Assembly (NCBI RefSeq): GCF_006345805.1
Contig: NC_043001.1
Location: forward strand, 8,804,001 to 8,868,000
DNA: 64,000 bases
Direction: 5' to 3'
Source: Octopus sinensis
Taxonomy: Eukaryota
A program made the position numbers and the translations under genes. Shown here one piece after another: positions 5,000-56,176 of the stretch; position 1 is the first letter of the stretch; the number at the start of each line of letters is the position of its first letter. The notes below the pieces were generated by a model. That model had not been told where the DNA came from and searched no databases. It saw only the letters and a program-made list of their open reading frames with translations.

Positions 5000-6420
5000 A
5001 AAGAAAAGAAAACGGAGAACATTGTACGCAATTACTAATACAAACAATAGAGGTGTCTTTCGACTAAGGGCAACTGAATTTGAGCTATATATTTATATAA
5101 ATTTATTTTATGTAATCATATTGGTAGGGAACAATCCCAGCTGTATCCTCTTGTGGCACATCAAGAGTATGTTAGAATTGAAAATTCTCTTAGAATTCTG
5201 TTACATGCTAGGACTGAAAATTCTGGAAATACCTTTTGAAGAATTTTTATATAACAAAAGGAATCTTCAAAATTACATGGTATCATTTATTCACCATAAC
5301 ACATGCTTCAGTTGCGAATTGGATCTTCATAATTGTACATATTGGATAAACGTGTATGAAATATTAGAAATATTAGAACTTAAAAATAAAGCATTTACAG
5401 CGCAGAAGTTCGAATTTGAGGGCAATATCTTTAGTAAGACTTAAAAATATCCATTGATAGTTGTTATCACTGAAGAAAACGATGACGAACAATATCGGTT
5501 ACACTACAAGAATCGAAGTTTGTATTAGAAAGGGTGTCACATATATTGTTAGATGCAGTCATGTTTAGGAAAGCTAAGTCGGAATTATTTCTACTATTCT
5601 TTGCCAACTAATATATAATATGAATGAGAAGGTTTTGTATTATTCTCTGCAATAACTAATACCCGGGAGGGTTGAATATGAAGGAGGGATGTTATTGCTG
5701 GCCGCATCGAGCATGACCTTCATAGTTTTGCATTTTGCATGTCTAAAGCATGGTTTGAAACTGGTATGTATATAATCCTTAACCGTATATAACAATTATT
5801 TTTAACTGCAGCGAACACATGGTTATGGCACCTTCAATTCTCTTTCGCATATGAGTAATTCGAGCATTCTGTAAAACCATATGTTTGAACAAACCCAGTA
5901 TGCCTTTTGAAGTTGAGTATATTATGCCACAAGTATGGCTTCAGAGAAAGCTATTTGAAAATATTCTTCCGTTAATCTAATGAACAAAATTTTTCCTGGA
6001 AGCTTTTTTTCACCATAAACGGATTTTAAAATATTCTTTTCTAACTACAAACGCATACGTAAATCGTAATTTCTGCAAAGCGCAGCCAAATTAAAAATTC
6101 CTAAAACAGGCAGTAAACCTGTACACATATAATTGAGAACTGCTTTACAGTGGAGCTCAATATTTCACGAACAAATATCTTTAAAAACCCGTCAATAAAG
6201 ATATGTACAGAAGTGTTTATAATTCTGTTGATAAAAGATAATGAGGTAATGGTTGCTAAATGCAGATCAGACTTGTATCCTGCCGCAGAGTACGGTGAGA
6301 TGTTACACTGGAGCATGTAAGACGGTTGGTTGAATAATTTCATTAATTGCTTAACTTCCTGATGAAGCTGTGAGAATCAAAAGACATTTTGTCGCGATTG
6401 GAAACACTTATGTAGACCAG
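5000..6420 (+). mobile_element. Highly decayed Penelope-like element (RT thumb / GIY-YIG region) ending in a degenerate hammerhead
   Basis: Broken frames with PLE-like patches such as LLIKDNEVMVAKCRS (cf. LLNKRSEL..KCRH), followed by CTGATGA (6359)...GAAAC (6401). Confidence 0.45.
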
Positions 6421-15601: not shown

Positions 15602-16088
15602 GTGACCCCTTCGGTCAGGGATGGTCATGGGATTGCATCTAGAGAGTTACCCTCCGAGGTAAAACTCTGGGCAAGGTTGTTTACGAAAGACCAGCAGTGG
15701 TCCACGCGTACCAGACTCCCCTCTCCATGCCACCGATGTTATCCAAGGGAAAGGCAAAGGCCGATTAAACTTGGCACCAGTGACGTCGCAGCTCGTCTAT
15801 TAACGTGCAAGTGACTGAGCACTCTACAGACACGTGTACCCTTAACGTAGTTCTCGGGGAGATTCAGCGTGACATAGAGTGTGACAAGGCTGGCCCTTTG
15901 AAATACAGGTACAACAGAAACAGGAAAAAAAAAGTGGGAGAAACTTGTGGTGAAAGAGTACAGCAGGGTTCTTCACCACCTTCGTGCTTTCGCTTAATAA
16001 ACACTCACAATGCCCGGTCTGGGAATCGAAACCGCGATCGTACTACCGCGAGTCCGCTGCGCTAACCAATGGGCCATTGCGCTTCCAC
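15602..16088 (-). mobile_element. Chimeric SINE: family C tRNA(Arg)-like head and body joined to a family D tail
   Basis: 15800-16088 matches 43762-44143; 15640-15790 matches 61952-62100; flanked by aacataatat(t/c)at direct repeats. Confidence 0.8.
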
Positions 16089-16124
16089 AACATAATATCA
16101 TATAACGTAAATAATTGTACTGTA

Positions 16125-16588
16125 TTCAAAGGATGAGGAATCAAGTATATTATTTATATTATTTGCATTTCACGGATATTTGTCCTCATCTTGTATGTTG
16201 TTAATCCAATATTTCGGCTGCTATACCCTCAAGACATTATCAGGTGTAGTGGGGAATTTCGAATCTAGGTTCTCATTCCTAAGGTATTATTCAATGTTAA
16301 TAATAAATATAATAATAATAATAATTATAATAATCATAATAATCATAATAATAATAATAATAATAATATAGTCACTGCCTGGGTTCGAACTTGGAATCTT
16401 GGAGTTACTATCCCGCGCTCATAACCACTACGCCATATGCCCGTGACAACCCGGGTTCGAAATTTTCCCAAGACACCTGATGAAGGCTGGAGAGAGTATC
16501 AGCTGAAACGTTGTGTTAACAACAGACAAGATAAGGACAAATATCTGTCAAATGTAAATAATGGACATAATTCCTCATCTGTTAAATA
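16125..16588 (-). mobile_element. Element with ~150-bp inverted hammerhead-containing arms around a tRNA-like head (candidate Penelope-dependent SINE), copy 1
   Basis: 16125-16275 is the inverted repeat of 16445-16588; tRNA-like head on minus at 16371-16442 (TGGCGTAGTGG, GTTCGAAC); second copy at 55752-56073. Confidence 0.8.
16472..16517 (+). ncRNA. Minimal type I hammerhead ribozyme motif
   Basis: gacac-CTGATGA-a-ggctg(gagagagtat)cagct-GAA-ACGT-T-gtgtt: stem I gacac/gtgtt, stem II, palindromic stem III ACGT, GUU cleavage triplet. Confidence 0.8.
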
Positions 16589-16789
16589 ATTGTAATATAC
16601 ATAAATTACTGGATTGTCTAACTATATCTCTCGATTTAATTTATCTTTATTATTGAATTAGACCAATATTTATATGGTATCCAACTCAAGTACCAGCGAA
16701 TTGGATGTTTAACACAACCCTTTGAAGGATTTCATCTCCTCAGTTTCTTACCTTATATATATGTGTGTGTATATATATTCCTTTCTTCT

Positions 16790-41895: not shown

Positions 41896-42016
41896 GACGT
41901 TTACACCACCCAGGTTTCCCAAACGGTCACCGATCTTAGTACAAACTAGGCTCGACGTTGCTTGACTTTATTGATCGGACCAGAACCGGTGTTTTCAAAG
42001 GGTTATGCCCGTAAAC
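41896..42016 (-). pseudogene. Full-length, diverged, solitary 5S rRNA copy
   Basis: Reverse complement GTTTACGGGCATAACCCTTTGAAAACACCGGTTCTGGTCCGATCAATAAAGTCAAGCAACGTCGAGCCTAGTTTGTACTAAGATCGGTGACCGTTTGGGAAACCTGGGTGGTGTAAAC is colinear with metazoan 5S rRNA, with many substitutions. Confidence 0.92.
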
Positions 42017-49852: not shown

Positions 49853-50415
49853 TGGCTGCGAGCTGGCAGAAACGTTAGCACGCCGGGTGAAATGCTTAGC
49901 AGTATTTCGTCTGCCGTTACGTTCGGATTTCAAATTCCGCCGAGGTCGACTTTGCCTTTCATCCTTTCGGGGTCGATTACATAAGTACCAGTTACGCACT
50001 GGGGTCGATATAATCGACTTAATCGGTTTGTCTGTCTTTGTTTGTCCTCTCTGTGTTTAGCCCCTTGTGGTTAGTAAAGAAATGGGTATTTTGTCTGTCT
50101 TTACGTTCTGAGTTCAAATTCCGGCGAGGTCGACTTTGCCTTTCATCCTTTCGGATTTGATAAAAGAAGTACCAGTTACGCACCAGTGCGTAACTGGTAC
50201 TTCTTTTATCAAATCCGAAGGATGAAAGGCAAAGTCGACCTCGCCGGATGCGTAACTGGTACTTCTTTTATCAAATCCGAAAGGATGAAAGGCAAAGTCG
50301 ACCTCGCCGGAATTTGAACTCAGAACGTAAAGACAGACATGTAGTCGACTTAATCCATTTGTCTGTTCTTGTTTGACCCCTCTATGTTTAGCCCCTTGTC
50401 GGCAATAAAGAAATA
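49853..50415 (+). mobile_element. SINE family B dimer containing an internal inverted duplication (50093-50338)
   Basis: Head plus two body units; the second unit is followed by two reverse-complement copies of itself. Confidence 0.9.
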
Positions 50416-55561: not shown

Positions 55562-55751
55562 TAATAATAAAGTATTAACGAAAGAATGAGACCTCGACAT
55601 TAGACAGATAGAGGGGATTATTTATATATGTTATAAATCAGAACAAACAATAGAAACTTGTCATTGTATCAGACGGAAATGTATCGTAGCTCTTCGCTCC
55701 GACATTCGAAACTCCAAGTACTTTAAAGACAACCTTTTACTGTTTCAGTTC

Positions 55752-56073
55752 TATATTTAAGAGATGAGGAATTAAGTACATTATTTACATTATTTATATT
55801 ATTTATATTTCACGGATATTTGTCATCTTTTTTTGTTGTATACACAATGTTTCGACTGATATACCCTCCAGTCTTCATCAAGCGTCTTGGGGAAATTTCA
55901 AACCTGGGTTCCCACTCCTAAGCTATTTTTCGATGCTATTATTATTAGTATTATTATTATTCAAGTAACAGCCTGGAATCGAACTCGGAATCTTGGTGTT
56001 AGTAGCTCGCGCTCTTAACCACTACGCCAACAAACAAGACGAGGAGAAATATCCGTTGAATGTAAATAATGTA
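55752..56073 (-). mobile_element. tRNA-head / hammerhead element, copy 2 (right arm partly deleted)
   Basis: Colinear with 16125-16588; minus hammerhead 55841-55886 gacgc-TTGATGA-a-gactg(gagggtatat)cagtc-GAAACATT-gtgta; tRNA-like head 55965-56028. Confidence 0.8.
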
Positions 56074-56176
56074 CTTTTACTGTTTGTTCTAATTTCCAAT
56101 ATATATATACATATATATATATATATATTTTATATATACATATATATATATAAATATATATGTATATGTATATATA

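Follow-up and report, generated by a model that had tools for sequence, protein, structure and literature searches.

The insertion at positions 16125-16588 of the window, a stretch of 64,000 nucleotides from Octopus sinensis (contig NC_043001.1, positions 8,804,001 to 8,868,000), is two head-to-head copies of a Penelope/Poseidon-type pLTR. The repeated unit, a tRNA-like head followed by an AAT linker and an arm, is almost certainly the pLTR that belongs to an autonomous Penelope/Poseidon-type element of this genome. The anatomy of such insertions is already known; the new part is the tRNA-derived cassette with A and B boxes at the 5' edge of the pLTR, and the chances appear about evenly balanced that it acts as the internal Pol III promoter of the autonomous element. 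A sequence-only reading of the insertion had proposed a SINE that is separate from its Penelope partner. This separation is not borne out, as the whole unit, including the head, is found as the pLTR of the autonomous element.

Insertions in the window and across the genome

The first insertion (copy 1) is flanked by an exact 12-bp target-site duplication (TSD) at 16108..16119 and 16583..16594, the right copy of which overlaps the arm end by 6 nt. On the minus strand, the pLTR begins at its 5' edge with the tRNA-derived head and a 3-nt leader (16371..16445), the putative Pol III promoter, with +1 at 16442, the A box at 16435-16425 and the B box at 16390-16383. The (AAT)n linker between the head and the ORF start, whose length differs between copies, lies at about 16301-16370. 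The 3' part of the pLTR (16120..16300, minus strand) holds a short leader, the start codon (16276-16274) and the first ~50 codons, decayed, down to the 3' tail, and it matches a family copy at 84% over positions 1-180 of 182. Within it lies a degenerate hammerhead (16203..16248, minus strand), in which stems I and II are damaged and the core reads CUGAUAA.

The second, opposite-facing copy (16443..16588, plus strand) is truncated at the ORF start codon and matches a family copy at 86%; its 48-codon open frame matches the N-terminus of the element's protein. Inside this coding sequence lies an intact minimal type I hammerhead (16472..16517, plus strand), whose computed fold is as expected and whose features are those described in PMC4209133. 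It has stem I GACAC/GUGUU, the core CUGAUGA (16477-16483), one extra A, stem II and GAAAC, and the cut is predicted after 16512, the last base of GUU (16510-16512). The two arms align as inverted repeats over 16149-16259/16461-16571 (77%) and again over 16123-16160/16551-16588 (79%). Thus, the inverted arms, the minus-strand head, the linker and the two hammerheads, one intact and one degenerate, are all as the sequence-only reading had described them.

That reading had also seen the same order of parts at 55752-56073. A second insertion (copy 2) is indeed present at 55746..56073 on the minus strand, with a 12-bp TSD (55734..55745, right copy 56074-56085), but only one of its arms carries a hammerhead, and a degenerate one. 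It consists of a full-tailed arm (55746-~55940), a short linker, a head without its first ~7 nt (55964-56029) and a 46-nt inverted arm (56028-56073), which begins downstream of the hammerhead and lacks it. A different tRNA-headed SINE-like repeat lies at 15780-16088 on the minus strand, ~20 nt left of the copy 1 TSD, and its head has no match to the family head.

Exact 21-23-mer searches of the source genome (2.72 Gb) give 5,541 matches for the arm end and 3,478 for the head start, dropping to 808 just upstream of the head, and reversed-sequence controls for the arm and head words give none. Because thousands of exact matches stand against zero in the controls, the family is not a chance nesting, in agreement with the earlier reading. 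At 5-10% divergence, the 5,541 matches imply roughly 16,000-50,000 arm ends. The head and arm also co-occur, as that reading had expected: in 30 loci picked by the head, the arm lies downstream in 24 and inverted upstream in four, i.e., it is linked to the head in 28, and neither arrangement is seen in two. The expectation of a fixed geometry fails, as the inversion breakpoints vary between copies.

For the insertion signature, we used the first 90 exact arm-end matches on contig C1, which leaves 87 insertions after removal of three segmental duplicates. An inverted copy is present in 53 of these and absent from 34, and head sequence is found in 55. For 43 of 49 inverted arms, the end lies 25-45 nt before that of the main arm, at positions 137-157 as against 182. 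Copies therefore end at two 3' points 25-45 nt apart, with a one-sided tail of 30-40 nt; they end in ORF sequence, mostly 6-15 nt beyond a fixed motif. An exact TSD of 9-14 nt flanks 28 of 49 insertions and none of the mismatched flank pairs. This combination of 5' inversions, one-sided tail and short TSDs is the pattern described for Penelope elements in the relevant parts of PMC8557442 and PMC3846280.

The pLTR and coding sequence of the autonomous element

Around the ORF for reverse transcriptase (RT) and endonuclease, the pLTR, consisting of the head, (AAT)n and the ORF start with its hammerhead, is found both before and after the coding sequence. In 30 loci picked by the endonuclease region, the head or arm lies directly downstream in sense in 29, with a head match in 27. 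The ORF stop codon is located ~40 nt before the head, some copies extend upstream of the head into the ORF's C-terminus, and one carries an inverted RT fragment there. The RT-picked locus L140 is a complete tandem of head-AAT-arm, ORF and head. Of 30 loci picked by the ORF 5' end, some of which are duplicates, 21 have the arm in sense immediately before the ORF body. The arm is itself the first ~50 codons of the ORF, with the hammerhead inside. Because the head follows the ORF, L140 is a complete tandem and the arm is coding, the apparent SINE unit is the pLTR. An autonomous Penelope-like element sharing this pLTR, which the sequence-only reading had named as a check, is thus present in the genome in L140 and in the ORF-linked loci.

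The 5' pLTR of L140 begins at -2 of the head. Among six distinct 5' pLTRs that reach the head before an ORF, three start at the head edge (L140/L261, L275 and L266/L281) and the other three begin at -45, -159, and -261 or beyond.

The coding capacity is of Penelope type, as is the pLTR with its minimal hammerhead, and both had been proposed earlier. The 48-codon frame of the plus arm in the window matches the start of a 391-aa stop-free stretch in locus L280, and the peptide encoded by the hammerhead, TPDxG..PKRCVNN, also starts an unrelated 847-aa homolog (P0003). The RT domain PF00078 is matched on locus L122 (E 3.5e-10), there are 861 ORF homologs at E <= 1e-20, including Anolis carolinensis, sea urchin and insect proteins, and a quick tree supports placement with PLE-type RTs. 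The A. carolinensis protein is 33% identical to the element protein over 303 aa, and the C-terminal region VYxIPCSCG..Y.G.T..R aligns with it at E 7e-48. The Pfam GIY-YIG domain PF01541 gives no match on three of three decayed copies and E 0.23 on P0003, and it is carried by four of the homologs listed. By homology, the C-terminus is thus a putative GIY-YIG endonuclease. None of the loci examined has an intact ORF, 391 aa being the longest stop-free stretch. We regard the family as real, abundant and probably inactive. In sequencing runs of five organisms, 0.62-0.76 of the family words are present, and no RNA run is among the matches listed.

At the junction of ORF and head, e.g., L038:1480-1515, the ~19 nt before the head resemble a decayed fold-back of the head start. 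This suggests that the head may have been joined to the ORF via a snap-back intermediate.

Conservation of the CUGANGA/GAAA core across the family had been set as a further check, and the core is largely kept. From 119 aligned tails, 89 ungapped copies could be scored: CUGANGA is present in 62, GAAA in 72 and the full core together with the palindrome in 27, and the cleavage base is U in all 89. The motif has the features of minimal type I hammerheads, i.e., an extra base after position 9, a G10.1-C11.1 pair and a palindromic stem III. Such motifs are described in PMC4209133 as inactive as monomers and of low activity as dimers. Computed dimers of the octopus motif pair through the stem III palindrome, although folding says nothing on activity. 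The proposal that self-cleaved RNA serves as the template is not supported, as only one of 44 sense-arm 5' ends within the arm lies <=3 nt from the cut. No RNA ends are seen at the cleavage site in three RNA-seq runs (~6% of each) of organism B. We also considered the hammerhead cut as the stop point of the cDNA and rejected it, since there is no pile-up of 5' ends at the cut. The hammerhead would be a weak ribozyme, dependent on a dimer or on protein and dispensable for these copies.

The tRNA-derived head and the question of Pol III transcription

The head is tRNA-derived and has A and B boxes, as first proposed, and it matches a profile built from 18 genomic tRNAs at E = 2e-5. Among 33 genomic tRNA loci the nearest is Arg(TCT), with a score of 58 against a shuffle mean of 25, and Ala is next with 55; because these two scores are so close, the parent could be either Arg or Ala. 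ARAGORN calls no tRNA in the window or in 58 loci, and Rfam calls neither a tRNA nor a hammerhead on the head and arm. The boxes are intact but the tRNA stems are broken, with two of seven pairs left in the acceptor stem, three of five in the anticodon stem and three of five in the T stem.

The 5' boundary at the head is sharp. Of 71 head-bearing segments, 24 end within +6..+60; among the other 47, 37 have their end within -8..+5 and 10 extend further upstream. Per nucleotide, the stop rate is 0.056 at -8..+5 (47 segments at risk), compared with 0.006 within the head and 0.008 just upstream. A minor cluster of stops lies at +13..+19 (12 of 71 segments). In many segments, the first bases of the head are present again as a short fold-back, which would be expected if the cDNA ended at about -6/-7 and primed itself; in such fold-back copies, the palindrome also inflates the end calls at -5 to -7. 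A distance of 13-14 nt between the start and an A box is suitable for Pol III. RNase P-type processing was considered as the source of the 5' end and rejected, as 1-7 nt upstream of +1 are retained in most of the short copies.

The stop does not have to mark the start of transcription. A hairpin spans the junction of ORF and head (-13.1 kcal/mol as RNA), and palindromes mark the pLTR 5' ends of rotifer elements; the relevant part of PMC3846280 reports no tRNA head for these. The boundary could therefore be structural.

A Pol III transcript would be expected to avoid TTTT. A survey of 134 aligned segments, 126,875 nt in all, finds no TTTT on the sense strand (~2.45 kb) that at least 30% of the copies have in common, and 29 AAAA sites that are shared. 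Two base-composition nulls expect 5.0 or 3.3 shared TTTT sites and give none in 1/300 or 8/300 trials (P = 0.003-0.03), while a codon-preserving null gives P(<=1) = 0.12, or 0.022 with neutral Phe usage. Other elements (25 non-redundant of 79 loci) have a median of 4.3 TTTT per kb; one of them, L389, has none, and the ~1-kb fragments L404 and L405 are also without TTTT. In the family itself, a TTTT variant occurs in 15 of 119 tails, including that of the plus arm in the window. The depletion supports transcription by Pol III in a suggestive way only.

A second A/B cassette is found in a distant Penelope element, L324. Of 79 metagenome loci, 36 include the ORF end and at least 150 nt downstream, and 16 remain after removal of duplicates; L324 is the only one of these 16 with such a cassette, where shuffles expect 0.003. 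It has an A box, a B box and a short AAT stretch, followed by a hammerhead in the first codons of the ORF. L324 is an intact tandem element with a protein 38% identical to the query, but lies outside the clade of the octopus element (SH-aLRT 99, quick tree). Its cassette is unlike the octopus head, matches the tRNA profile at only E = 0.55, has no Rfam tRNA call, and is part of a unit with two TTTT near the ORF start. The unit (L324:2760-3030 and 5550-5741, JGI1357J11328_10009043) is 2,791 nt long, with an open ORF of ~850 aa and a GUC-site hammerhead in the pLTR, and would be a better bench subject than the decayed copies in the window.

A single-protein scan of metagenome contigs and a scan of viral contigs found no related locus, and prokaryote genome contigs gave three loci (L403-L405), none with A/B boxes; these are Penelope-like sequences in contigs of three bacterial MAGs and probably represent host contamination. 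At L382:603, a tRNA-like A/B cassette lies ~2.4 kb upstream of a Penelope-like match, and it is probably a SINE without relation to it.

RNA-seq was examined on locus L284, using three raw runs of organism B (~6% of each) and one contig set. Read counts are equal on the two strands (e.g., 1325 vs 1351), and neither starts nor ends accumulate at any place, in a test that is limited by library type and species. The depth is lower over the head (115-330) than over the arm (440-1440) and falls ~100-fold after the tail. This pattern fits passive transcription of scattered copies; libraries of this type may lose short or non-polyadenylated RNA. In run X22, three reads join L284:1608 to 1195, running from the ORF through an A-rich stretch into the head at about -6, and they reflect either a genomic tandem or a circular junction.

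From the boundary, the missing TTTT and the L324 cassette, we infer that Pol III may transcribe the family. Alternatively, the head could be a passenger, i.e., a captured tRNA or SINE remnant in an element transcribed by Pol II, with the junction hairpin stopping or folding back the RT and so setting the boundary. We consider this rather unlikely, although several observations agree with it. The hairpin lies at the right place, palindromic pLTR 5' ends and self-priming are described for other Penelope elements in PMC3846280, the Penelope promoter mapped in Drosophila resembles TATA-less LINE promoters according to PMC2377424, and the RNA-seq has neither a sense excess nor a start. Translation would also be straightforward under Pol II. 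However, the loop of the hairpin and its 5' strand, not its base, are where the stops concentrate, and there is the minor cluster at +13..+19. A passenger would also not be expected to keep its boxes while losing its stems, to sit where L324 has its own A/B cassette, or to lack shared TTTT when most other elements have T-rich 3' regions.

Pol III RNA has no cap, so the ORF would need another route of translation if it is read from such RNA. It can be speculated, although we regard the whole as somewhat improbable, that Pol III transcribes the autonomous element end to end from a captured tRNA, that terminators have been purged from the 2.5-kb coding strand, and that the hammerhead region assists translation of the uncapped RNA. 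In the same speculation, capture would have occurred more than once (in this family and in L324), and such pLTRs would seed SINE-like repeats moved by Penelope. If the head is a working promoter, the polymerase that makes tRNAs would here drive a protein-coding retrotransposon, a case of which we found no description in the literature searched. In titles and the openings of abstracts, no tRNA-derived promoter in a pLTR is described, and the relevant parts of PMC2377424 and PMC3846280 describe Penelope promoters as LINE-like or TATA/Inr-like. It would also show how an autonomous element can give rise directly to a SINE-like repeat.

Solo copies and relationship to known systems

The closest known system is PAc (Poseidon from Anolis carolinensis), as far as it is described in the relevant parts of PMC11167929. 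Both elements have a single ORF with RT followed by a GIY-YIG-type endonuclease, and a pLTR that includes the ORF start with a hammerhead over the first codons. In both, there are two 3' ends and a tail of 30-40 nt, 5' inversions and short TSDs of variable length. Unlike the PAc pLTR described there, the octopus pLTR opens with a cassette of A and B boxes derived from a tRNA, followed by an AAT linker, and this edge is a sharp stopping point for copies.

We suggest that Pol III would start ~6-7 nt before the head and read through pLTR, ORF and pLTR. The protein would then begin to copy uncut RNA from an internal point, ~120-160 nt into the ORF, as PAc does; in vitro, PAc starts internally on an uncut RNA template and the tail is the sequence between its two start sites (PMC11167929). 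A start in the 5' pLTR would give a cDNA of ~300 nt that runs to the 5' end of the RNA, i.e., the abundant solo copies, while the long copies would come from a start in the 3' pLTR or from RNA that is tandem or circular. The inverted arm could arise when the end of the cDNA, or a second cDNA from the other target strand, pairs via the head-edge palindrome or through microhomology. The hammerhead would not be needed for any of these steps. With its sharp and testable 5' boundary, the family ties solo copies, the one-sided tail and inversions to one transcript, which bears on two open questions, namely how Penelope elements are transcribed and why they leave inverted, palindrome-centred copies.

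Solo copies are thus probably, for the most part, direct products of the RNA of the autonomous element and not a self-propagating SINE. The majority sequences of solo and ORF-linked copies are identical, both for heads (132 vs 59) and for tails (92 vs 27), and tail divergence is equal (5.1% vs 5.3%, p = 0.79). Head divergence is 5.9% in solo and 7.7% in linked copies (p = 0.03), a comparison in which many solo heads were picked for quality. Four head positions differ between the two sets at p < 0.02, and these look like decay of the linked set and not like a diagnostic variant. The family shares with tRNA-derived SINEs a tRNA-related head with A and B boxes. It has neither the A-rich or simple-repeat 3' tail of such SINEs nor a non-coding lineage of its own among 191 heads and 119 tails, a sample from which rare subfamilies could escape. 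Solo copies stop at the RT start point and are without the ORF stretch beyond; for PAc, the first 172 nt of the ORF are reported as needed, with RT starts at 111-118 (PMC11167929). A separate SINE family with the same head was also looked for and not found among the 30 head-picked loci (arm downstream in 24, inverted upstream in four, neither in two).

Solo pLTRs could instead be transcribed again from their own Pol III promoter and copied in trans by the Penelope protein, which would make them a de facto SINE. Solo copies outnumber ORF-linked ones ~4:1 and keep both boxes, their heads are slightly less diverged, locus L004 holds short tandem units of the arm and ~120 nt of ORF, and in a rotifer a host gene has been mobilised in trans by pLTR sequences alone, according to PMC3846280. 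Nevertheless, re-transcription in trans is unlikely. A diagnostic solo subfamily is absent, with identical majorities and tails of equal age, solo copies lack the ORF stretch that PAc needs, and 5' ends do not accumulate at the hammerhead cut. One full-length transcript is also expected to give more short copies than long ones.

A DNA transposon, such as a MITE, that has terminal inverted repeats and a captured tRNA-like piece, or a chance nesting of SINEs, is suggested by the inverted ends only when copy 1 is seen alone, and both readings are so improbable that we regard them as already refuted by the insertion and ORF evidence. The 34 of 87 insertions without inversion, the unequal arms and the variable breakpoints do not agree with matched terminal inverted repeats, the TSD varies from 9 to 14 bp, and the arms are the start of an RT-coding ORF. 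Chance nesting would not link arm and head in 28 of 30 head-picked loci. That the arms are not the inverted repeats of a DNA transposon is also what the first reading had held.

Like tRNA-derived SINEs, the solo copies have an A/B-box head, a length of ~300 bp, thousands of copies and TSDs; unlike them, their body is the coding 5' end of an autonomous element, they end in neither poly(A) nor a simple repeat, and they form no lineage of their own. Thousands of copies have the look of tRNA-SINEs, and repeat libraries could list them under that name. The octopus tRNA-derived SINEs OR1, OR2 and OK were compared by description, and OR1 is described as a CORE-SINE in PMC4824008. The O. vulgaris repeat library behind PMC13282606 may contain the family under a SINE or Penelope label.

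Two other systems combine a short repeat with a hammerhead. In the schistosome repeats Sm-alpha and Sj-alpha, a Pol III-type promoter also precedes the hammerhead; however, as described in PMC6765202 these are non-coding, tandem and active as ribozymes, while the octopus unit belongs to a coding element and mostly occurs singly or inverted. Animal non-LTR retrozymes are likewise pLTR-related hammerhead units moved by Penelope machinery (PMC7229834; bioRxiv 10.64898/2026.07.22.740005), but they are described as head-to-tail tandem arrays, and typical octopus insertions are single or inverted. The main text of the preprint 10.64898/2026.07.22.740005 makes no mention of tRNA, Pol III or octopus.

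Tandem units are seen only in L004 (L004:1070-3110, G000:C27:7599024-7602168), where short units of the arm and ~120 nt of ORF flank an inversion on both sides. This tandem may be a retrozyme-like, non-autonomous derivative that retains the protein-binding region.

Two further repeats were noted in the window. At 41898-42016 on the minus strand, a 5S rRNA-like sequence (62 bits, Rfam cut-off 38) runs into a repeat-like tail and is either a 5S pseudogene or a 5S-headed retroposon. At 50119-50249, a near-perfect 131-nt palindrome is formed by two pieces of a common repeat in inverted orientation, and a partial third copy comes after it.
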